From positions 61,360 through 125,359 of the forward strand of contig JBKBRF010000017.1 of NCBI GenBank assembly GCA_046292385.1: a DNA stretch of 64,000 nucleotides. Reading direction: 5' to 3'. The DNA comes from Armatimonadota bacterium (GTDB taxonomy: Bacteria > Armatimonadota > SYMT01). The notes beneath the pieces are model-generated. The model did not search any database and was not told the origin of the DNA. It saw only the letters and a program-made list of their open reading frames with translations. Shown one piece after another: positions 2,206 through 64,000 of this stretch; the first letter of the stretch is position 1, and every line of letters begins with the position of its first letter. The position numbers were made by a program, and so were the translations under genes.

Positions 2206-5013
2206 ATGAACCTCTGGACCCTCGTCCTGCTCTGCTGCGTCCTTCTCTCGGCTGCCGGCGTCGCCGGCCCGGCCGACGCGCGCGACGGCGACGGTGCGAT
2301 CCGCCCCGTCGCGCTGACCTGCGAGTACGCGGTGAACCCGCTCGGAGTCGACTCTCCCGCGCCCGCGCTCGGCTGGCAGCTCCGCGCGGCCGACCCGAAG
2401 GCGCGCGGCCTGTCGCAGTCCGCCTACCAGGTCCAGGTCGCCACCTCCCCCGCGCAGCTCCGCGCCGGCAAAGCCGACGTGTGGGACAGCGGCCGGGTGG
2501 AGTCCGCGGAGAGCGTGCAGGTGCCGTACGGCGGCCGGCCGCTCCGCTCCGGCGAGCGGGTCTACTGGCGGGTGCGGGCCTGGGACACGGCGGGAGCGCC
2601 TTCGCCCTGGAGCGAAGCGGCCTGGTGGGAGATGGGGCTGCTGCGGCCGGAAGACTGGTCCGCCCGCTGGATCGTCCGCGCGAACGACACCCCGCCGGCC
2701 GATCCGTATGGTGACGATCCGGCGCCGCTGCTGCGGCGGGAGTTTACGCTCAAGGCGAAACCGGCCCGCGCCCGCGTCTACGTGAGCGGCCTCGGCTACT
2801 ATGAGCTGCGGCTGAACGGGGAGCGGGTGGGCGACCGCGTCCTCGACCCGGCGTGGACCACCTACTCGGAGCGGGTCTTCTACTCCGTCTACGACGTGAC
2901 CGACCGGCTGCAGCGCGGCCGGAACGCGCTGGGCGCCATGCTCGGGGGCGGCTGGTACGACCCGCTCCCGCTGCCGCTCTTCAACCGCTTCAACCCGCGC
3001 GACGTGCTGCCGGTCGGCCCCATGCGCCTGGTCCTGCAGCTCGAGGTGGAGTACCCGGACGGCAGCCGCGAGCGGGTGGTGACCGACGACTCCTGGAAGG
3101 CGGCGGAAGGCCCCGTGGTCCGGAACAGCGTCTACCTGGGCGAGCACTACGACGCCCGCCGGGAGCAGCGGGGCTGGGACCGTCCCGGCTTCGACGACTC
3201 GGCGTGGGGCCCGGTCGCCCTCGCTTCCGGAGAGCTCGGCCCGCTGCAGGCGCAGCCTCTCGAGCCAATCCGGTTGGCGCGGACGGTCGAGACCGTCGCC
3301 CTCTCCGAGCCGCAGCCGGGCGTCTACATCTTCGACCTGGGCCAGAACCTGGCGGGCTGGGCGACCCTGCGCGTGAAGGGCCCCGCCGGGACGCAGGTGC
3401 GGATGCGCTACGGGGAGCTGCTGCATAAGGACGGCACGCTGAACCCGATGACCTCCGTCACCGGCCAGCTCAAGCAGGGCCGCCCCTTCCCCAACTCGGA
3501 GCGCCCGCCGATCGCCTGGCAGGAAGACCGCTACGTGCTGCGGGGCGGCGGGATGGAGGAGTACACGCCGCGCTTCACCTTCCACGGCTTCCGCTACGTG
3601 GAGGTGACCGGCTATCCCGGCAAGCCGGAGCGGAGCGCCGTGCGCGGCCACCTGCTCCACTCCGCCGTGGCGAGCGCCGGCGACTTCTCCTGCTCCAGCG
3701 AGCTGTTCAACCGGATCCAGGAGATGGTCCGCTGGACGCAGCTCAGCAACATGTTCAGCGTCCAGTCCGACTGCCCCCACCGGGAGAAGCTCGGCTACGG
3801 CGGGGATATCGTCGCCGCCAGCGAGATGGGGATGCTGAACTTCGACATGGCGCGCTTCTACGCCAAGACGGTGCTCGACTTCGCCGACGCACAGCGCCCG
3901 AACGGCGGCTTTACGGAGACGGCGCCCTACCTCGGCATCGCGGACGAGGGGCTCGGCGGCGGCGCGGGACCGGTCGGCTGGGGCACGGCGCACCCGCTGC
4001 TCCTGGCGCAGCTTCACCAGTACTACGGTAACCGCCGCCTGCTGGCGGAGCAGTACGACCGGGCCGCGGCCTGGATGAAGCTGCTCCAGGAGCGGGCGGT
4101 CAACGGCATTCTGGACAACGGCATCAGCGACCACGAGAGCCTGGTCCCCAAGCCGCGCGCCCTCACCGGCACCGCCTTCTACTACTACAACGCGCGGCTG
4201 CTGGAGCGGATGGCGCGCGTGCTGGGCAAAGAGGCGGACGCGCAGCGCTACGCCTCCCTGGCGGGGGAGATCGCGGAGGCGTTCAACCGGCGCTTCCGCC
4301 GCCCGGTGCGCGGCCTTTACGACTCCGGCACCCAGGCGTGCCAGGCCTTCGCCCTCTACATGGACCTGGTCCCGCCGGAAGACCGGGAGCTGGCACTTCA
4401 GCACCTGGTGAGCGACGTGATGACGGTGCGGGGCGGGCACCTCTCCACCGGGATCTTCGGGACGAAATACCTGCTCCTCTCCCTGAGCGACCTGGGCCGC
4501 GCGGACGTGGCCTACACGATCGCCGGGCAGCGGACCTTCCCCGGCTGGGGCCACATGCTGGAGAACGGCGCCACCACGCTCTGGGAGCACTGGGAGCTCA
4601 GCGACAACACCTTCTCCCACAACCACCCGATGTTCGGAACGGTGAGCGAGTGGTTCTTCAAAGCGGTCGCCGGCATCCAGCCGCATCCGGACGCCGTCGG
4701 CTTCGACCGCGTGGTGATCCGGCCTCAGCCGGGCGGCGGCCTCACCTGGGCGAGGGGAGAGTACCGGTCGGTCCGCGGCCTCGTCTCCTCGCGTTGGAAA
4801 CGGGAGGGGGACCGCGTGAGCCTGGAGGTGGAGGTGCCGGTCAACGCCTCGGCCCTGGTCTACGTGCCGGCCCGCCGCGGGGAAGAAGTGCTGGAGGGCG
4901 GCCGCCCCGCGGCGGAGGCGCCCGGCGTGCGGCTCCTCCGGTGGGAGGGGAGCGCGGCGGTGTACGAAGTCGGCTCCGGGCGCTACCGGTTCTCCTCGCG
5001 TGGTATTCTTTAA
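2206..5013 (+). CDS. Alpha-L-rhamnosidase (GH78), secreted
   Basis: Signal peptide plus WDSG, FDLGQN, FTFHGFRYVE, SDCPHREKLGYGGD, GATTLWEHW and SHNHPMFG motifs. Confidence 0.93.
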   Translation: MNLWTLVLLCCVLLSAAGVAGPADARDGDGAIRPVALTCEYAVNPLGVDSPAPALGWQLRAADPKARGLSQSAYQVQVATSPAQLRAGKADVWDSGRVESAESVQVPYGGRPLRSGERVYWRVRAWDTAGAPSPWSEAAWWEMGLLRPEDWSARWIVRANDTPPADPYGDDPAPLLRREFTLKAKPARARVYVSGLGYYELRLNGERVGDRVLDPAWTTYSERVFYSVYDVTDRLQRGRNALGAMLGGGWYDPLPLPLFNRFNPRDVLPVGPMRLVLQLEVEYPDGSRERVVTDDSWKAAEGPVVRNSVYLGEHYDARREQRGWDRPGFDDSAWGPVALASGELGPLQAQPLEPIRLARTVETVALSEPQPGVYIFDLGQNLAGWATLRVKGPAGTQVRMRYGELLHKDGTLNPMTSVTGQLKQGRPFPNSERPPIAWQEDRYVLRGGGMEEYTPRFTFHGFRYVEVTGYPGKPERSAVRGHLLHSAVASAGDFSCSSELFNRIQEMVRWTQLSNMFSVQSDCPHREKLGYGGDIVAASEMGMLNFDMARFYAKTVLDFADAQRPNGGFTETAPYLGIADEGLGGGAGPVGWGTAHPLLLAQLHQYYGNRRLLAEQYDRAAAWMKLLQERAVNGILDNGISDHESLVPKPRALTGTAFYYYNARLLERMARVLGKEADAQRYASLAGEIAEAFNRRFRRPVRGLYDSGTQACQAFALYMDLVPPEDRELALQHLVSDVMTVRGGHLSTGIFGTKYLLLSLSDLGRADVAYTIAGQRTFPGWGHMLENGATTLWEHWELSDNTFSHNHPMFGTVSEWFFKAVAGIQPHPDAVGFDRVVIRPQPGGGLTWARGEYRSVRGLVSSRWKREGDRVSLEVEVPVNASALVYVPARRGEEVLEGGRPAAEAPGVRLLRWEGSAAVYEVGSGRYRFSSRGIL

Positions 5014-5072
5014 GAGCCTCTCAGAGGCGCGCTCGCCGCGCCCGCAGCCGAATACGCAACCGAGTAGTGACG

Positions 5073-6236
5073 ATGTCAGAAGAAAACGAGAACCCAGCCG
5101 AACAGCCGGGGCAGGAGCTCCGCGAGCATCTCTTCGAGGCGGACCTGGTCCAGCTTCCGCCGCCGGACAGCGACCTGGATGGGTTCCTGCCGAACTGGTT
5201 CGAGGGGAGTCTCCCCGCCCTGGTCTATCCCCCGCTCGCCGAGCGGAACCTGGCGGACGGGGACACGGTGGACCTGCAGATCACGCCGTACCACCTCTAC
5301 TACGGGGCGCTGCGAGAGCTGGCGGAGACCGCGGAGGCGGAGCGCGGCGACACGCTGCGCCGCCTGATCGGCGAGTGGAACCCGCAGGCCGCCTACGAGG
5401 TGTGCGAGATCGCGCGGCTCTACGTAGAGCACGATCCGGAGACCGCGCTGCTCCACTACGAGCTGGCGCTGGAGCTGGAGCCGGAGCTGTACGAGGCGAC
5501 GCAGGACGCCGGCATGTGCCAGTACGCGCTCTCGACGGTCGAAGAAGAGGACCCGGAAGAGCGGCGGGACGCCGCGGAAGAGCTGTTCCGGCGGGCGATC
5601 GAGCTGCGGCCGCAGTCCGGCCTCTCCTGGTGGAGCCTGGCCCGGCTGCTGAACGACCGGGGCGATGCTGCCGGCGCCCGGGGCGTGCTGGAGCAGTTCC
5701 TGCGGGAGCAGCCGGAGGGCGAGCACCGGGAAATGATCGAGCAGGCGCTGGGGGCCGGCTTCGAAGGGGAGCAGCCTTCCGACGAGCAACTGCTCTTCCA
5801 GCAGGCGCAGGCGCTGGCGTTCGGAGAGAACCCCGCGGAGGCGGTGGAGATGCTCACCCCGCTGGCGGAAGCCTATCCGGACAGCCCGCAAATCTGGTTC
5901 GTGCTGGGCGGCGCGCACCGCCGCGCGGGCGACTACGCGGAGGCGGAGCGCTGCCTGCGCCGCGCCTCCCGCCTGGCGCCGGCGGAGCCGTTCATCTGGT
6001 GGGAGCTGGCCAGCGCCTACGCGGAGACGGAGCAGTGGCGCGCGGCGGAAGACGCCAGCCGCCGGGGCCTGGAGTTCGACCCGGAAAACCCCGGCTTCCT
6101 GGTGGTGCTGGGCCGGGCGCTCCTGGGCCAGGGCGACCGCGAGGCAGCGGAGGACGCCATCTACCGCGCGCAGGAGCTGATCCCGGACGATCCGGAGGTC
6201 CAGGCCGCCGTCCAGGCCCTGGAGAGCTCCCGGTAG
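5073..6236 (+). CDS. Acidic tetratricopeptide repeat protein
   Basis: Multiple TPR-like helical repeats (A..LFRRAIELRP, AERCLRRASRLAP, RRGLEFDPENP). Start ATG 5073. Confidence 0.85.
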   Translation: MSEENENPAEQPGQELREHLFEADLVQLPPPDSDLDGFLPNWFEGSLPALVYPPLAERNLADGDTVDLQITPYHLYYGALRELAETAEAERGDTLRRLIGEWNPQAAYEVCEIARLYVEHDPETALLHYELALELEPELYEATQDAGMCQYALSTVEEEDPEERRDAAEELFRRAIELRPQSGLSWWSLARLLNDRGDAAGARGVLEQFLREQPEGEHREMIEQALGAGFEGEQPSDEQLLFQQAQALAFGENPAEAVEMLTPLAEAYPDSPQIWFVLGGAHRRAGDYAEAERCLRRASRLAPAEPFIWWELASAYAETEQWRAAEDASRRGLEFDPENPGFLVVLGRALLGQGDREAAEDAIYRAQELIPDDPEVQAAVQALESSR

Positions 6237-9737: not shown

Positions 9738-11326
9738 AACAGTCCGCCCGGTCGCGCCTGCGCCGCGCGCCGCGGCGGAGCTCCCCCCTCGCGCTGCTGG
9801 CGGTGGCTGCCGCCCTGGTGGTGGTCGGTCCGCCGCTGCTCTGGCTCGCGGCGGCCGCGCTGCGCGCTCCCGCGGAGGCGGGGCCTCCGCTGCTCGACCC
9901 GCTGGCGCGCGGACTCCTCACCCGCAGTCTTACCGTGGCGGGGCTCGCCGCCCTGCTCGCGCTGCTCCTGGGCGCCCCGCTCGGCTGGGCGCTGGCTCGC
10001 CTGCGCCTGCCGGGGCGGCGCCTGCTGACCGTCGGGTGCCTGGCGCCGCTGCTCCTGCCGCCCTACGCCGCCGCGCACGCCTGGAGCCAGCTCCTGGCGC
10101 GGGAGGGGCCGGTGAACCGGGCGCTGCTGGGCGGGGGCTGGATCGAGACGCCGATCGCGCCCGACCGGCACGCGTGGGTCGCCGCCGCCGTCCTCGCCTT
10201 CACGTACTGGCCGATCGCGGCGTGGCTGGTGCGGTTCGCCGCCCGCGCCGTGCCGCGGAACCTGGAGGATGCCGCCCGCATGGAGCTGCCGACGGAGCGG
10301 GCGCTCCTCCTCGCGGGGTGGCCCGCCGTGAGCCGCGCCGTCGGCACCGCCGCGCTGCTGCTCTTCCTGCTCTCCCTGGCCGACTTCGGCGTCACCAACT
10401 CCCTGGGACTGCCGACCTACCCCGTGGAGATCGTCCGCACGTTCCAGTCCCAGCCGGTCGGGGTGGTGATGCGCCTGGCCCTCCCGCTGCTCGTCCTGGT
10501 CGTCCCGCTCGTGGCGCTGCAGAGCCGCCTGCTCGAGGGAACGCCGCTGGCACCCGCGGGCGAATCCGGAGAGCCGCTGCGGGCGAGCCTCCTCGTGCGC
10601 GCAGGGCTGGCTGGCTGGGGGGCGGCGGCGATCGGGCTCTCCGTGCTGGTGCCGCTGGGGGTGCTGGCGGCCGAGTCGCTGCCGCTTCACACCTACGTCG
10701 AAGTGTGGGGCGAGAGCGCGGACCACTTCGTCAACACGCTCCTCTCCGCCGGAGGCGGGGCGCTGCTGGCCGGAGCCCTGGCCGTCGGCTACGTCTGGGC
10801 GGTGCGCGGCCGGCGGGTGCGGGGGCTCGATCTGCTCCTGACGCTGCCCTACGCGCTGCCCGGATCGCTGGTCGGCATCGCGCTGATCCAGCTCCTCAAC
10901 CGCCCCGGCCCGGCCGAGCTGCTCTATTCCTCCCTCGGCGGCCTGGTGTGGCTCTACGCCATCCTCTTCCTGCCGTTCCCGTACAAGACGGTTCAGCTCG
11001 CCTGGGGGCACGTGGACCGGGAGCTGCTGGAGGACGCTCTTCTCCAGGGGGCGAGCCCGTGGCAGCAGTTCCGGGCCGCGGCTTGGCCGGCGCTGCGCCC
11101 GTTCGCGACCGCGGGCGGGGTGATCGCCGCCCTGCTCTCCGCCCGCGAGATCGACGGCACGGCGCTCCTGCGGATCCCCGGCGGCGACACCATCGCCTTC
11201 CGGATCTACGACTACCTCCACTTCGCACCCGGTCCTAAGCTCGGGGCGCTCTGCGTGCTCCTGGTGCTCCTGAGCGGCGCGGTAGCCGGCCTGGCGCTGC
11301 GCTGGGGTGGCCGCGCGAGCGAGTAG
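9734..11326 (+). CDS. ABC transporter permease (FbpB-like, two membrane domains)
   Basis: Hydrophobic protein with two EAA-like motifs (LEDAARME, LLEDALLQGAS). Overlaps the SBP stop (GTGA). Confidence 0.88.
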   Translation: MKQSARSRLRRAPRRSSPLALLAVAAALVVVGPPLLWLAAAALRAPAEAGPPLLDPLARGLLTRSLTVAGLAALLALLLGAPLGWALARLRLPGRRLLTVGCLAPLLLPPYAAAHAWSQLLAREGPVNRALLGGGWIETPIAPDRHAWVAAAVLAFTYWPIAAWLVRFAARAVPRNLEDAARMELPTERALLLAGWPAVSRAVGTAALLLFLLSLADFGVTNSLGLPTYPVEIVRTFQSQPVGVVMRLALPLLVLVVPLVALQSRLLEGTPLAPAGESGEPLRASLLVRAGLAGWGAAAIGLSVLVPLGVLAAESLPLHTYVEVWGESADHFVNTLLSAGGGALLAGALAVGYVWAVRGRRVRGLDLLLTLPYALPGSLVGIALIQLLNRPGPAELLYSSLGGLVWLYAILFLPFPYKTVQLAWGHVDRELLEDALLQGASPWQQFRAAAWPALRPFATAGGVIAALLSAREIDGTALLRIPGGDTIAFRIYDYLHFAPGPKLGALCVLLVLLSGAVAGLALRWGGRASE

Positions 11327-36212: not shown

Positions 36213-36779
36213 ATGTCGATTCCCTCGAACGGACTGCGCGTGGCCGCGCTGGTGGCGGACGGCTTCGAGCAGGTGGAGCTGACAGAGCCGATGCAGGCGC
36301 TGGAGCGTGCCGGCGCCCAGGTGGAGATCGTCTCGCTCAAGCCCGGTGAGGTGCAGGGCTTCAACCACTTCGATCGGGCCGACCGCTTCCCCGTAGACGA
36401 AACGGTCGACCGTGCCGACCCCGCCAGCTACGACGCATTACTGGTTCCCGGCGGCGCGCACAGCCCGGACCAGCTTCGCGCCAGCGAGGAAGCGCTGGAG
36501 TTCGTACGCCACTTCGACCGCGAGCAGAAGCCGATCGCGGTGATCTGCCACGGCCCCTGGGTGCTCGTCTCCGCCGGCGTGGCGCGCGGCCGGAACCTGA
36601 CGAGCTACCACACGATCAAGGACGACCTGGTGAACGCCGGCGCCAACTGGGAAGACCGCGCGCCGATCTGCGACGACAACCTGGTGACCGCCCGCAGCCC
36701 GGACGACATTCCCGCCTTCAACGACGCGATGCTGAGCCTCTTCGGCCTCGCCCAATCCGCGGGGAGGCGAGCCGCCTGA
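36213..36779 (+). CDS. pfpI: PfpI/DJ-1 family (type 1 glutamine amidotransferase-like) protein
   Basis: DGFEQVEL, YDALLVPGG, AVICHGPW and LVTAR.PDD motifs. Confidence 0.9.
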   Translation: MSIPSNGLRVAALVADGFEQVELTEPMQALERAGAQVEIVSLKPGEVQGFNHFDRADRFPVDETVDRADPASYDALLVPGGAHSPDQLRASEEALEFVRHFDREQKPIAVICHGPWVLVSAGVARGRNLTSYHTIKDDLVNAGANWEDRAPICDDNLVTARSPDDIPAFNDAMLSLFGLAQSAGRRAA

Positions 36780-36929
36780 GGAGACTGAGAGGGGGAGTGG
36801 GAGCAAGGGGGAGTGGGAGACTCGTCCGAACGGAGAGTCGGACCCACCTCCCCCTCTGCTGCCAAACGTCTGGACCAGGCGGGCGCGAAGATTCCGACAG
36901 TGGTCGTGTGCATGCTCCAACCCGCGGAG

Positions 36930-37190
36930 CCCGGAGGCGGAGCCGGAGGGATCCACTTGTGAGGCCCCCAGGCGCGGGGGCCTCGCTTGAGCCGGACGGA
37001 GCGGCCCGTGAACCGCCGCTATGATCAAGCCGAAGCACTCGGACGCGGAGCAAAGGCTGCCGGGGAGTACGCCCGAGCAGTCCGCTAGCGCAGCCCGAAG
37101 GGCGGAGCGTGAAAGGACTGGCGGAGGGCCAAGCTCGCGGGAGGGCCGTTCCGTCCGGGGAGGGCGGGGGGTGGACTTCCGGAGAGATGC
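36930..37190 (+). repeat. Dispersed structured non-coding element, copy A (candidate ncRNA or ssDNA element)
   Basis: Collinear with 44377-44648. 16-bp stem at 36992-37007/37143-37158, with nested cagtcc/ggactg. Confidence 0.85.
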
Positions 37191-37220
37191 TGATTTGGGC
37201 GAGAGAAACCTACCCTGCCG

Positions 37221-37434: not shown

Positions 37435-37538
37435 ATGGGAGAACGGGTGGGTGAGCGTTCAACGGGACTGGCCTCGGGCGTGGGTCTCCCACTCGCCCAC
37501 TCCCCCTTGCGCCCACTCCAACCCGAAAGAAGTAGTCG
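37435..37538 (+). repeat. GGGAGA-armed palindromic repeat ending CCGAAAGAAGTAG (copy 2)
   Basis: gtctcccactc...cccttgc.cccactc...ccgaaagaagtag is shared with 27560-27666. Confidence 0.7.
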
Positions 37539-37544
37539 CCCTCG

Positions 37545-38291
37545 TCAAGGCACAGGATGGTGCAGCTCCACCGGCTTGCCTTTGCGGAGCTTCAGGTTCA
37601 GCATCTCCACGATGGTGGAGAACGCCATCGCGAAGTAGGTGTATCCCTTCGGGATGTGCTGGTGCAGTCCTTCCGCTACCAGGTTCGCGCCGATCAGGAT
37701 CAGGAACGCCAGCGCCAGCATCTTCACCGTCGGGTGCCGCTCCACGAAGTTGCCGACCGGCTCCGCGAAGAGGAGCATGAAGCCGACGGAGAGGAGCACT
37801 GCCGCGATCATCACCGCCACCTGGCTCACCATCCCGATGGCGGTGATCACCGAGTCGATCGAGAAGACAACGTTGATCAGCAGCATCTGGGACATCACGC
37901 CGGCAAAGGTGACGGCGGCGCCGGTCATCTGCCCCACGTGCTCGTTGTGGCCCTCCAGTTTATGGTGGATCTCCTTGGTCGCCTTCGCCAGCAGGAAGAG
38001 GCCGCCGAGCAGCAGCACCAGGTCCTTCGCCGAGATGCCCTTCTCCATGAACGGAATATGGAAGAGCTCCGTCTTCTCCAACCCGATGATGATCCCGATG
38101 CCGAGGAGCATCACGACGCGCGGGATCAGCGAGAGCACGAGCCCCATCTGGCGGCCCCGCCGCTGCTCTCCCGGCGGGAGCTTGCCGGCGATGATGGCGA
38201 TGAAGATGACGTTATCGACGCCGAGCACGATCTCCAGCAGGGTCAGCGAGAGGAGACCGATCCAGGCTTGCGGGTCCGAGAGCCACTCCAT
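37545..38291 (-). CDS. TerC family membrane protein
   Basis: LEIVLGVDNVIFI, VFSIDSVITA, RHPTVKMLAL.FL and IPKGY.YFAMAFS motifs. Confidence 0.92.
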   Translation of the reverse strand: MEWLSDPQAWIGLLSLTLLEIVLGVDNVIFIAIIAGKLPPGEQRRGRQMGLVLSLIPRVVMLLGIGIIIGLEKTELFHIPFMEKGISAKDLVLLLGGLFLLAKATKEIHHKLEGHNEHVGQMTGAAVTFAGVMSQMLLINVVFSIDSVITAIGMVSQVAVMIAAVLLSVGFMLLFAEPVGNFVERHPTVKMLALAFLILIGANLVAEGLHQHIPKGYTYFAMAFSTIVEMLNLKLRKGKPVELHHPVP

Positions 38292-42460: not shown

Positions 42461-44248
42461 ATGCAGTGGAAGCGAATCGCGGCAGCAGGTTTCGCCGCGC
42501 TCTCCTCGCTTGGCCTCTGCCTGGCGGCACGCGCCGACGCAAAGGCGGAGCTGAAGGCATTCGAAGGCAAGATCGAGGCGGTCGCCAAGCTGCCGGGAGA
42601 GCCGTCGATCTACGAGAGCGCCGGCGTGACGCGCGTGCAGGACCTCCCCTTGCGGACGCTCGGCAGCCGCGAGCCGGTGAGCTCCTCCCGGCGGCGCCTG
42701 GTGCTGATCGGGGGGCTGGACGGCAACGACCGCGGCGCGGACGCGGCGGTAGCGGCGCTGCGCTGGTTCAAGACGCAGGCGCCGCAGTCGCTGCGGGATA
42801 GCTGGAGCATCACCGCGATGCCGCTCGGCAACCCGGAGGGCTGGCTGGAGCTGAAGCCGACCAACGATTCCGGCGGCAAGCCCGCGGTGAACTACCCGCC
42901 GGCGGAGGGCACCTTCTTCGCCGACCGCAAGAACGCGGAAGGCCGCTACATCTGGCGCTGGATCACCTTCCAGGCGCCCGACCTGGTGCTGGAGATCCGC
43001 GGCGGGAACCGGATCGCCTGGTTCGCGCCGCCGAACACCGGCGCGCTGGCGCAGGCGGTCGGGGCGCAGCCGCTGGTCGGCGCCGACTCGCTCGCGATGT
43101 CGCTCACGCGTGACCCGGTCTCCGGCCTCGGGACGGTGCCGGTGCTGCTGGCCGACTCTCCCGCGACGGGCGGACCGGAAGTGCTGCAGAAGGCGCTCGT
43201 CGCCGCGGCGAGCCTGCCGCGCTCTCCCTTGCGCCAGGCGGTAATCCGGCGCTCAGAGCGGGCCCCGCTCACCGCCGCCTCCCTGCTGGCGGAGCGGTAC
43301 CCGCGGGAGAACGGGATCAGCTACATCCCGGCGGCGGCGTGGTCCGGCGCGCTCCGGCTCGCTGAGCTGCGGGGGGAGAGCCCGGAGGCGACCCGCCTCC
43401 GGGAGAAGGTCCGCCTGGCCCTGGCTCCCTATCTGAACGGGGCGGCGCCGGTGGTGAACGGCGAGCCGGACGTGGCGAAGCTCGCCGGCTACCTGGTCTT
43501 CGCCGACCTGGCGGAGGCGGCCGGCACCGGGGACCAGCGGGAAGCGGCGAAGCGGCTGGCTCTGGAGGGCGCCGCGCTCTTTCGGCCGGAGGGGTCCGGC
43601 GGCACGGCCCGGTTCGGGCGGTTCTGGTCGGACGACATGTTCATGACCGCCGCCGTGCTCGGCCGTGCGGGCAAGCTCTCCGGCGACGCCGCCTACTTCG
43701 ACCTGCTGGGCCGCACGCTCCGCCAGTACGTGGAGAAGCTGCAGCAGCCGAGCGGCCTCTTCATCCACGCCCCGGACGCCCCGCACGCCTGGGGACGCGG
43801 CAACGGCTTCGCCGCGCTCGGGCTGATGGAGGCGCTCACCTACCTGCCGGAGGGGCACGCGGACCGCGCGCCCCTCCTCGCCAGCTTCCGCAAGCTGATC
43901 GCCGCGCTCGTCCCGCTCCAGGCGCCGGAGGGCACCTGGCGGCAGGTGGTCGACCGGCCCGAGAGCTACCGCGAGGTGACCGCCACCGCCATGACGCTCG
44001 CCGCCATGGCGCGCGGAATCCGGATGGGCTGGCTGGGTAAAGAGCTCGCTCCGGTCGCCGCCCGCGCCTGGAGCGGCCTCGCCGCCCGCCTGGGCGACGA
44101 CGGCAGCCTGATCGACGTCTGCGCCGGCACCGGCACCGGTCCCACCCTCCGCTACTACTACGACCGCCCCGCCCTCGCCGGCCCGGACGACCGCGGCGGC
44201 GCCATGGCCCTCCTGGCAGCGGTAGAGTACGGCTCCCTCGGCAACTAA
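42461..44248 (+). CDS. GH105/GH88-family unsaturated glycosyl hydrolase with N-terminal degenerate M14-like domain
   Basis: C-terminal WSDDMFM, GLFIH, WGRGNG and W.QVVD...SYRE.TATAM motifs. N-terminal IGGLDGND, PLGNPEG and PDLVLEIR. Confidence 0.8.
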   Translation: MQWKRIAAAGFAALSSLGLCLAARADAKAELKAFEGKIEAVAKLPGEPSIYESAGVTRVQDLPLRTLGSREPVSSSRRRLVLIGGLDGNDRGADAAVAALRWFKTQAPQSLRDSWSITAMPLGNPEGWLELKPTNDSGGKPAVNYPPAEGTFFADRKNAEGRYIWRWITFQAPDLVLEIRGGNRIAWFAPPNTGALAQAVGAQPLVGADSLAMSLTRDPVSGLGTVPVLLADSPATGGPEVLQKALVAAASLPRSPLRQAVIRRSERAPLTAASLLAERYPRENGISYIPAAAWSGALRLAELRGESPEATRLREKVRLALAPYLNGAAPVVNGEPDVAKLAGYLVFADLAEAAGTGDQREAAKRLALEGAALFRPEGSGGTARFGRFWSDDMFMTAAVLGRAGKLSGDAAYFDLLGRTLRQYVEKLQQPSGLFIHAPDAPHAWGRGNGFAALGLMEALTYLPEGHADRAPLLASFRKLIAALVPLQAPEGTWRQVVDRPESYREVTATAMTLAAMARGIRMGWLGKELAPVAARAWSGLAARLGDDGSLIDVCAGTGTGPTLRYYYDRPALAGPDDRGGAMALLAAVEYGSLGN

Positions 44249-44376
44249 CGCCTCCACCCACGCCGAAACCGCACAACGCCGGCCACCCCACCGCGGGGGC
44301 CGGCGCTCTGCTGTACGCAATCGGGAGTGCCTCGCCCGCGCGTTGAAGGCGGGCACTCGGGGCCGGTTCCAAGGAA

Positions 44377-44648
44377 CCCGGAGGCGCAGCCGCAGGCTGC
44401 GACGGAGGGCTCCCCGTGTGGGCACCCCTGGCGAGGGGTGGCCGCTTGAGCCGGACGGAGCGGCCCGTGAATCGCAGTCCTGGATCAACCGAAGTCCGCG
44501 AACGCGGAGGACAGGCTTCCGCCGCGCACGCCCGGAGCAGTCCGCTAGCGGAGGCGAAGCCGGAGCGTGAAAGGACTGGCGGAGGGCCAAGCACGCGGGA
44601 GGGCCGCTCCGTCCGGGGAGGGTGCGGGGTGGAGCCCCGGGTCGATGC
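44377..44648 (+). repeat. Dispersed structured non-coding element, copy B
   Basis: Collinear with copy A. Perfect 16-bp stem at 44451-44466/44601-44616. Confidence 0.85.
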
Positions 44649-44870
44649 CGATCTCGCCAAGAGGACTCCCCCCTGGGGGCGGAACTCCGGCACGCCCGGC
44701 ACGCCGAATCGCGGAACGAGCGCTCACCTGCTTGTTACCCTACGCTCCGCCTGCCCGGATGCCGACTATACAGCCCGGTACTTGACCGCTGGACAGCCGG
44801 TGGGGGAAGATTACACCATCCGGAATGGTCCCCGTTCCCCAGCAGTTTGCCTTCGAAAGGAACTAACTGA

Positions 44871-63664: not shown

Positions 63665-63792
63665 CAGCGACTCCTGCGGCGGGATCGGCGTGGGGACAGA
63701 GACGAGTCAGGTTTCGTGACGGACCGGCGGGTCCCTGCACGGGGTTTCCCCTGGCACTTCCAGCGGGGTGGTGCCCCGTCGCTTCGTGAGAG

Positions 63793-63876
63793 GCATCTCA
63801 CTGGGGTTCCACCCCCCGCCCTCCCCACCCGGAGCGGCCTTCCCGCGAGAATGGCCCTCTCGCAGTCCTTTCACGC
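63793..63876 (-). repeat. Dispersed structured non-coding element, copy C (3' module; continues past window end)
   Basis: Reverse complement reads gcgtgaaaggactgcgagagggcca...cgcgggaaggccgctccg...ggggagggcggggggtgga...gatgc, matching the 3' halves of A and B. Confidence 0.8.
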
Positions 63877-64000
63877 CCACCCGTACGCTCACATTTCGCA
63901 GATGGAGTTACGGTATCGCTTGTTGCGCTGTGCGCAACAAACTCCCTTGATGAAGAAGCAGGGAGCGGGGGCATGATTTGGCCCGCCACGCGGTGAATCT

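Follow-up and report, generated by a model that had tools for sequence, protein, structure and literature searches.

A high-copy family of folded, protein-less elements often occurring in pairs of two types in an uncultured Armatimonadota bacterium

Copies of the element in the window

A stretch of 64,000 nucleotides from an uncultured Armatimonadota bacterium (the window; G000:C17:61360-125359) has been analysed for a structured non-coding element of which it holds two full copies, A and B. The host assembly, G000, comprises 7.04 Mb in 91 contigs with 68.9% G+C and is 98.45% complete; the labels G001-G006 denote other genomes of its taxonomic family. The current analysis places A and B in a family of about 140 modules in this genome, which fold on one strand with compensatory change, which occur singly or as head-to-head pairs of two unlike types, and which are probably moved by an enzyme encoded elsewhere. 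An initial annotation had proposed a dispersed family on the strength of the two copies; the family extends far beyond these, as searches with nhmmer and a covariance model revealed, and its scale, the heterotypic head-to-head pairs and the random orientation of the copies to genes had been missed.

Copy A occupies positions 36919..37206 of the plus strand and is a full module of type 1 (major clade 2) covering positions 1-298 of the family profile, as assigned by nhmmer and profile projection; its covariance model match is at G000:C17:98310-98543 (200.8 bits). Copy B, also a full module of type 1 on the plus strand, lies at 44366..44664 according to alignment and profile projection, with a covariance model match at C17:105769-106001 (213 bits). 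The initial annotation had located both copies rightly (36930-37190 and 44377-44648) and had drawn the units slightly too short. A third copy, represented by the 3' part of a module, is found on the minus strand at 63786..63878, where both contig and window end (nhmmer match C17:125145-125237, profile positions 219-311, 51.6 bits). A and B are collinear with a mean column identity of 85% over 346 columns (MAFFT), and the five invariant blocks ascribed to them are present in both. Their compensated segments, namely the P1 stem, the stem of the GNA triloop and a 16-bp stem, are likewise real and lie at the places reported. Family copies are separated in the alignment by indels of 1, 8 and 10 nt, which argues against coding. 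No terminal inverted repeats (TIR) or target-site duplications (TSD) are seen at A or B, in agreement with the earlier description, and at the 3' boundary of A the likeness to other copies stops at about +15.

The features of copy A, all on the plus strand, follow one another from a 5' hairpin region, P0 (36926..36955), which has been delineated from the alignment and from RNAalifold on 134 copies and which is shorter than in most type-1 copies through a 12-nt deletion. Hairpin P1 (36961..36984) is preceded by the conserved CACTTGTG and consists of GAGGCCCCC, an AGGCGC loop and GGGGGCCTC; its counterpart in B is GGCACCCC/GGGGTGGCC at 44420-44443. The 5' strand of the closing helix P2 (GCTT, 36985..36988) pairs with GGGC at 37162-37165 and includes near-invariant U-G pairs. 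It is followed by the 5' strand of the long helix P3 (36992..37007), whose partner lies at 37143-37158. This 16-bp stem, CCGGACGGAGCGGCCC / GGGCCG(T/C)TCCGTCCGG, has a single G-T in A and is perfect in B, where 44451-44466 pairs with 44601-44616 on the plus strand.

P3 encloses a GTGAA motif, a variable region V1, an invariant CGCGG and a second variable region V2, which together occupy 37010..37075 as placed by a length-class tally. V1 is about 31-32 nt long with a small covarying hairpin (31-32 nt in 77/134 copies) and V2 measures 18-19 nt in 107/134 copies, both lengths having been taken by regular expression with imperfect boundaries. Helix P6 (CAGTCC / GGACTG; 37078..37120) encloses GCTAGC, hairpin P7 and the conserved GCGTGAAA; P7 carries a GNA triloop, GCCC-GAA-GGGC in A and GGC-GAA-GCC in B. 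The 3' strands of P3 and P2 (GGGCCGTTCCGTCCGG GGA GGGC; 37143..37165) are followed by a G-rich 3' hairpin (GGGG...CCGG; helix 10) and a semi-conserved tail (GAGATGC...GAGAGA) at 37166..37206.

Two genes upstream of the copies provide the context. A gene of the DJ-1/PfpI family (36213..36779, plus strand; Pfam PF01965, E 1.1e-51) precedes A, and a gene of glycosyl hydrolase family 88 (42461..44248, plus strand; PF07470, E 6e-40) precedes B. At 44579-44580 in copy B (window 44577-44580), many contigs of three DNA runs have CG for GC, and the depth there is 2-5 times as high as in the adjacent bins, a pattern to be expected if contigs from further copies pile up on a conserved block.

Size and distribution of the family

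The module is about 290 nt long. Two iterations of nhmmer gave 158 hits in G000 (141 at the first), of which 134 are at least 220 nt long, and a BLAST search of the genome gave at least 47 matches with 40 of 173 candidates scored. A trimmed covariance model, R1, comprising 233 positions and 50 pairs and built from 40 copies, finds 142 matches in G000 (E up to 0.001; no more than 150 candidates were scored). The copy number corresponds by arithmetic to about 0.6% of the genome.

Among the seven genomes of the taxonomic family, covariance model matches have been identified in three, with 142 in G000, 15 in G005 and 8 in G006. No match is found in G001, a congener of G006, or in G002-G004, these genomes being 69-95% complete. 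Of 150 genomes sampled across the phylum, two contain the modules, and both belong to this taxonomic family (0/144 outside it); BLAST detects the modules in one of 40 relatives. An exact pattern of the conserved blocks, in a looser version since the stricter first one matched nothing, occurs at 12 loci in only two assemblies among 185,579 species genomes; the same pattern is found at 10 metagenome-contig loci, all of them confirmed by the covariance model (12 matches). BLAST of the module plus tail against 72,556 plasmid and 50,697 phage records gave no match.

The initial annotation had not recognised the element as a known family, and the Rfam search agrees. None of the 4227 models of Rfam 15 reaches its gathering threshold anywhere in the 64-kb window. 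At E values up to 10 the surroundings of A and B match miRNA, lncRNA or frameshift models only, with 9.5-17.7 bits against cut-offs of 40-99 and best E values of 2.5 and 0.89, which are at chance level; HEARO, the IS605-orfB motifs, group II introns and self-cleaving ribozymes are not among the models matched. A description of the family was not found in the literature in a limited search, which cannot show that the family is unpublished.

The copies in G006 form same-strand tandem arrays. A type I-E CRISPR-Cas locus of G005 (L082, G005:C3:826000-841000) contains four modules, all on one strand, at 4642-5661 and 10320-10896; two of them separate cas1 from the cas6e/cas5 genes, and the others lie beyond cas2 by an uncalled 2.8-kb stretch that is possibly the array.

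Fold and covariation

From 40 copies RNAalifold derives 49 pairs, of which 19 are changed on both sides, and with 134 copies the consensus energy is -170.6 for the sense strand vs -153.1 for the reverse complement. Watson-Crick covariations also rank top in mutual information with average product correction over the 134 copies. In 83 distinct copies from the three genomes, aligned to the covariance model, 95.2% of the cells are paired vs 81.6% after shuffling (a level reached by 0/500 shuffles) and 43-51% when the partner is slid; double changes occur in 30 of the 50 pairs and the covariation score is 0.364 vs 0.128. This alignment is fitted to the model and therefore favours structure, a bias that the slid controls carry as well.

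The support is spread over several helices. Both-sided changes are found in 8/9 pairs of P1 (helix 1) and in 13/15 pairs of P3 (helix 3), the latter with up to five pair types, and double changes in 4/6 pairs of helix 8, which belongs to the P6/P7 region. One pair of P2 is U-G in 79/80 cells, and the pair that flanks or extends this helix covaries as C-G in 80, A-T in 24 and T-A in 24 of the 134 copies. G-U and U-G occupy 325 cells against 39 for A-C and C-A, which indicates that the fold belongs to the strand as given. The element is thus a structured single strand kept by compensatory change on one strand, as the initial annotation had supposed of its two copies. The loops of P0 and P7 are nearly always G-N-A triloops with a closing C-G pair; minihairpins of the type d(GCGNAGC) are of exceptional stability.

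Folding energies have been calculated for both nucleic acids. Copy A folds as RNA with -154.8 kcal/mol and a z-score of -3.55 (0/200 shuffles), its complement giving -1.93, and with DNA energies the z-score of A is -0.62. For 18 random copies the mean z-score is -3.96 with RNA energies (16/18 below -2) vs -2.92 with DNA energies. As modelled, both kinds of fold are significant and that of RNA is somewhat stronger, a difference that is not decisive.

Although the mean pairwise identity is 70%, 85 columns are conserved at 97% or more. Private substitutions, taken as those unique to a copy relative to its two nearest relatives in the 44/134 copies having two relatives at least 85% identical, amount to 0.74% in these 85 columns vs 5.97% in 125 variable columns and are thus 8-fold rarer. 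The depletion fits selection on each copy, or gene conversion that homogenises the conserved blocks; mosaic variable regions among aligned composites hint at gene conversion.

Paired modules and their ends

Clustering resolves two major clades, type 1 with 58 copies, A and B included, and type 2 with 72. Adjacent copies overwhelmingly have their 5' ends facing, with 33 pairs in the order minus-plus vs one each of plus-minus, minus-minus and plus-plus. All of the full-length pairs (26/26) unite a type-1 with a type-2 module, in 11 combinations of fine clades, and the partners of a pair are 57-72% identical. The gap between the two 5' ends can be below 20 nt. Covariation sits inside each arm, so that each arm folds alone and not with its partner; specific complementarity between the modules of a pair is not detected (Wilcoxon p 0.35), the duplexfold energies being dominated by domain-swapped internal helices. 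Divergent pairs are also present in G005, and two of these, when their aligned rows are inspected, are seen to combine unlike types. One complete pair, 798 nt long, has been duplicated as a unit, over which nine composites align.

The nearest copies are 90-95% identical and their likeness stops abruptly. In the young subfamily represented by the 798-nt composite, the unit starts near YCTGT|ACTACTCACCGCGAGAATCTTG and ends with ...GCGGCATCAGCCGCGCTGTG|. The left end has a hairpin, GAGAATCT/AGATTCT, and the right end another, GCGGC-ATCA-GCCGC, ending in GCTGTG, both hairpins having been seen by eye without a statistical test. YCTGT precedes ACTACTCACC in 8/9 aligned composites and in some solos only, and may be part of the element. 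Single type-1 copies of this subfamily share the same left end of about 56 nt and the same right end. Nine aligned composites and six solos, inspected by eye, display no TIR and no visible target duplication. By analogy, these ends resemble those of elements of the IS200/IS605 type. The left end is found reverse-complemented in 14 paired type-2 copies and the right end in 13 paired type-1 copies; six solos have both, and five more have one end or an inverted combination. Away from modules the end motifs are confined to three right-end matches, two of them at contig ends. For most solos the likeness ends within about 20 nt of the module of about 300 nt.

A filled and an empty site have been compared. 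In G005 a pfkB kinase gene and a NIF3 gene are separated by a spacer of 1137 nt that holds a pair; their orthologues in G000 (65% and 71% identical as proteins) lie on contig C55, which carries no module, with 155 nt between them. Other genes that flank modules in the relatives have homologues in G000 that are not adjoined by a module. Inverted-repeat flanks, as for insertion at hairpin loops or heptamer arrays, exceeded the 99th percentile of the control in one of 100 units.

Inverted heptamer arrays (CAGGTTG... / ...CAACCTG) occur in the spacer G000:C55:5957-6112 and in the flanks of G000:C16:77361-77763; one module has them on either side, and they take up the empty site between pfkB and NIF3. 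A contig of the soil DNA run X2 joins position 36820 of the window to 37485 with four other letters between, skipping the spacer between the DJ-1 and TerC genes that holds copy A. With 26 letters on its shorter side, this junction is possibly the empty site of a related strain, maybe from another organism, and is too weak to count.

Genomic context and expression

When genes are called crudely by the G+C of third positions (4211 genes, 73% of the genome), 117/134 copies fall outside them. Solo modules are oriented like the upstream gene in 36 cases and opposite to it in 32, the corresponding numbers for the downstream gene being 38 and 36. The position just behind a gene 3' end, noted for A and B, is thus true of these two copies and, with gene orientation random across the family, is coincidental rather than a family trait. 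Clustering of 312 crude neighbours within 1.5 kb revealed no recurrent protein, the largest cluster having eight members, and 31 neighbours in the relatives are unrelated housekeeping genes.

The solos do follow the composition of the strand. With elements masked and a half-window of 10 kb, their sense strand is the locally C-rich one in 52/74 cases (p 6e-4), and at 25 kb with an absolute skew above 0.02 in 22/25. All eight modules within a 26-kb region, G000:C40:13648-39998, are on the minus strand with the intervening genes running both ways, in agreement with this bias.

Neither a sigma-70-like promoter nor an intrinsic terminator was predicted in one pair locus (0 and 0). Around A there are no promoters, and two terminator-like sites, both at 37537-37573, lie outside the element. 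In the RNA-library run X14, available as contigs only, a contig of 266 nt covers 36894-37159 with three differences at a depth of 3.3, the contigs on the DJ-1/PfpI gene upstream having depths of 4.1-4.7; copy B is without cover in this run. RNA libraries may hold DNA and contigs give neither strand nor ends, and the cover of copy A is therefore a hint of expression and no proof.

Interpretation

With moderate confidence, copies A and B are considered to represent a protein-less, self-propagating structured element that is mobilised in trans. The module of about 290 nt folds on one strand only into the 5' hairpin P0, hairpin P1 and the closing helix P2 with its U-G pairs. P3 of 15-17 bp encloses a junction of two variable regions, helix P6 and the GNA-triloop hairpin P7, the G-rich 3' hairpin coming after. 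The putative enzyme, encoded elsewhere, would recognise the folded single strand and move the unit. The heterotypic pair would be the complete element, its two outward-reading arms serving as unlike left and right ends, and single modules may be half-elements or a simpler form. The self-propagation proposed in the initial annotation accords with the multiplication in the genome and the differing presence between relatives, including a site filled in G005 and empty in G000. Of the two forms it offered for the element, a non-coding RNA or ribozyme class and single-stranded DNA acted on by an enzyme of the HUH/Y1 type, neither is clearly favoured.

As to the acting form, we lean, short of an even chance, to single-stranded DNA that is peeled and pasted like IS200/IS605 elements, PATEs or REPINs. 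The GNA triloops, the missing promoter and terminator, the failure to find a reverse transcriptase in this genome, the orientation biased against local GC skew and the IS200/IS605-like ends of the young subfamily argue for it. RNA made from the element and serving its spread or control is a serious possibility as well, ranked second, to which the abundant and partly invariant G-U pairs, the stronger z-scores with RNA energies and the RNA-library contig on copy A point. Any other form seems unlikely.

Several observations weigh against mobilisation in trans, the first being that no mobilising enzyme has been found in the genome. The TnpB zinc ribbon (PF07282) has no match in G000, and OrfB_IS605 (PF01385) has none in the seven family genomes. 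RRXRR of IscB (PF14239) is silent in all seven as well, and also in the control genomes. RVT_1 gives neither matches nor candidates in G000 and is present in four of the six other genomes irrespective of the element; a retroelement (group II intron, retron or similar) has accordingly been rejected. Genes with Y1_Tnp occur in six of the seven genomes and do not track the element. G000 has five Y1_Tnp matches, two of them strong, and the family profile is absent from all five loci in nhmmer searches even at E 10. The proximity of copies to an HUH transposase, a reverse transcriptase or TnpB/IscB that the initial annotation had envisaged is thus not borne out.

The L110 transposase described below has no homologues in G000 or G005. 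The sharp ends are confined to one subfamily, 97/134 copies carrying neither end motif, and for copies outside the young subfamily no target motif or TSD has been established. The fold, with at least eight helices and about 85 near-invariant columns, is far more elaborate than known recognition hairpins of transposases, and neutral decay of dead transposon copies fails to predict the 8-fold depletion at conserved columns. Copy-by-copy conservation and complexity of the fold together oppose a purely selfish repeat. Metagenome-assembled genomes often lack multi-copy insertion sequences, and the absence of an enzyme is therefore weak evidence either way.

The two strong Y1 genes are flanked by repeats of other kinds. 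A gene for a 149-aa Y1 protein of IS200/RAYT-like type (G000:C22:55627-55965; L089) is followed by two inverted repeats of about 100 nt (flanks 1854-1976 and 2287-2395), which have 75 BLAST matches over many contigs and look like a separate REPIN/RAYT-like system. A gene for a 145-aa Y1 protein (G000:C51:25920-26261; L088) lies within inverted arms of 39 nt (1424-1462 and 1957-1995), each with a hairpin GCGAGGGGTT-GAA-AACCCCTCGC. Just upstream of the latter locus a 29-nt stretch of GGATGA-type heptamers is present, which is found on at least six other contigs. IS110 has been considered and rejected as a partner; its two genes lie on a 1.4-kb contig and on C6, which has no module.

The alternative that survives best, though we regard it as rather doubtful, is that the modules are multi-copy genes of a trans-acting structured RNA, serving as a ribonucleoprotein scaffold, a guide-like RNA or a ribozyme in the manner of HEARO or omega RNAs. 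Types 1 and 2 would then be made from a divergent two-gene unit, with V1 and V2 conferring specificity on each copy. It is kept alive by the copy-by-copy conservation and the complex fold, that is, a ribozyme-like complexity with about 85 columns conserved at 97% or more against the background identity of 70% and the 8-fold depletion of private substitutions within them. The abundant G-U pairs with one near-invariant U-G and the RNA z-scores (mean -3.96 vs -2.92; copy A -3.55 vs -0.62) also speak for it, and the 26/26 heterotypic pairs fit a two-RNA unit. The 266-nt contig on copy A can be cited in its favour too, but its depth is as low as that of the upstream gene, the library may hold DNA and copy B is uncovered. 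Protein-less PATEs, which often encode omega RNAs used in trans according to the portion of the published account considered here (PMC10055086), provide a precedent.

Against this reading, sigma-70-like promoters and intrinsic terminators are missing in and beside the pair and copy A, the 5' ends within a pair can be less than 20 nt apart, and no partner protein has been found. V1 is largely a hairpin and not a free guide, and the modules of a pair have no partner-specific complementarity (p 0.35). Four of the seven genomes in the taxonomic family, among them one from the same genus as a holder, moreover lack the modules.

A bolder reading, which we advance tentatively and hold to be unlikely, would place the module in a class of its own among large structured nucleic acids, with conservation like that of a ribozyme or ribonucleoprotein scaffold, an obligate pair of outward-reading paralogous halves and selection on each copy. 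It may be a two-RNA system of a mobile unit that guides or catalyses its own spread without a known RNA-guided protein family. Or the modules may be ends with folding 3'-terminal single strands, which would imply an intermediate of transposition or replication with self-folding free 3' ends. The latter form recalls, by analogy, the geometry and GNA triloops of the telomeres of actinomycete linear replicons, which have folded 3' overhangs.

That the modules are the long ends of a DDE transposon (Tn5/IS4-like), with pairs as MITE-like deletion derivatives and singles as solo ends, is improbable. It is suggested by the metagenome contig locus L110 (528-2460), where two divergent modules (covariance model scores 103.8 and 87.4 bits) directly flank a 474-aa open reading frame with Tn5 dimerisation, DNA-binding and DDE_Tnp_1 domains and where the arms are 76-83% complementary over stretches of 33-65 nt. 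The geometry of the pairs, with 3' tails outward, equals that of long inverted ends, and a need for one left and one right end would explain the 26/26 heterotypic pairs. This arrangement is however seen on one contig only, both arms being cut at the same point of the P1 loop beside inverted repeats of about 20 bp, and the L110 transposase could be an autonomous parent or an ordinary insertion sequence inside a pair. Its homologues occur in G002, G004 and, as a fragment, G006; two of these genomes, G002 and G004, hold no modules, and homologues are missing from G000 with 142 modules and G005 with 15. No TSD is seen at the young composites, the multiplication of single modules with sharp ends of their own is left unexplained by a two-ended DDE mechanism, and double-strand cut-and-paste gives no reason for strand-specific covariation that tolerates G-T.

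It is very improbable that the modules serve the host in cis in the way of REP/BIME sequences (by stabilising mRNA 3' ends, as barriers to transcription or as sites for a nucleoid protein) and were spread by recombination, for although the intergenic location, the place of A and B behind gene 3' ends, the RNA-library cover of A at about the depth of the upstream gene and the conservation of individual copies would suit it, the solos are indifferent to the orientation of the upstream (36 vs 32) and downstream (38 vs 36) genes, there is no terminator-like feature, most related genomes lack the family and the fold goes far beyond the needs of a stabilising hairpin.

Comparison with known systems

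The trans-mobilised element preferred here has been compared with the known kinds of short mobile and structured elements. Like MITEs derived from DDE transposons, the family consists of short protein-less units with two inverted arms, and one contig has a Tn5-like transposase between them. It differs from them in that the arms are about 300 nt long and only about 65% alike, covary on one strand and multiply alone, and in that neither of the two genomes with the most copies has the transposase; the TIR with target-site duplication by which MITEs are known are not seen at the young composites.

HEARO, the omega RNA of IscB, is likewise a structured non-coding element of about 300 nt that has many copies and often lacks an adjacent protein gene. 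The family differs in having no Rfam match and no IscB-type gene, the search for the latter having been silent in the control also, and in that a layout of guide plus scaffold is not recognised.

PATEs (Meers et al. 2023, PMC10055086) are protein-less derivatives of IS200/IS605 elements with omega RNAs. As far as the part of that account drawn on here goes, the family shares with them the absence of a protein gene and, as it seems by eye in the young subfamily, unlike ends with subterminal hairpins and no TIR or TSD, and perhaps a conserved short motif just outside the left end; the 3' end of the structured module points to the right end as in the omega RNA of TnpB (PMC10055086). On the same footing, it departs from PATEs in that no TnpB or IscB domain was found in the seven family genomes, the IscB search being silent in its control as well, nor a cognate TnpA with matching ends, 97/134 copies are without such ends, a further module faces outward from the left end and the IS605-orfB and HEARO models of Rfam are not matched.

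With REPs and REPINs and their RAYTs (TnpA-REP), as these are presented in the portions of the reports used here (PMC3116915, PMC3337134, PMC8266576), the family has in common high-copy intergenic non-coding repeats that are patchy between genomes, inverted units that travel together, the lack of TIR and TSD and a single-strand fold presumably recognised by an enzyme encoded elsewhere. To judge from the same portions, it is unlike REPINs in its arms of about 290 nt with at least eight helices and many invariant unpaired bases, against a palindrome of 20-40 nt, and in that the arms are 57-72% identical, always of two types and each folding alone. Two inverted short REP palindromes forming one hairpin are not found, nor is a Y1 gene flanked by the same repeats, the Y1/RAYT-like genes being flanked by others. 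REPINs with RAYTs and the PATEs with omega RNAs are the closest known kinds, and the family lacks defining features of both.

Interspersed repeats of bacteria are mostly simple hairpins (REP, REPIN, MITE) and large intricate non-coding elements are rare, several of the large folded ones (HEARO, IS605-orfB motifs) having proved to be guide RNAs of transposon nucleases. The importance of the present family is limited by its narrow host range, which so far comprises three uncultured Armatimonadota species; its many diverged copies offer a ready covariation data set for a structural model, probing and cleavage assays. It is set apart from the kinds discussed by its copy number of about 140, a fold that comprises at least eight helices, about 85 near-invariant positions and pairs that are always heterotypic, with no TnpB, IscB, reverse transcriptase or linked Y1 gene. 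This combination implies either a recognition of a non-autonomous element that is more elaborate than in the known kinds, or an unknown partner enzyme or RNA activity.

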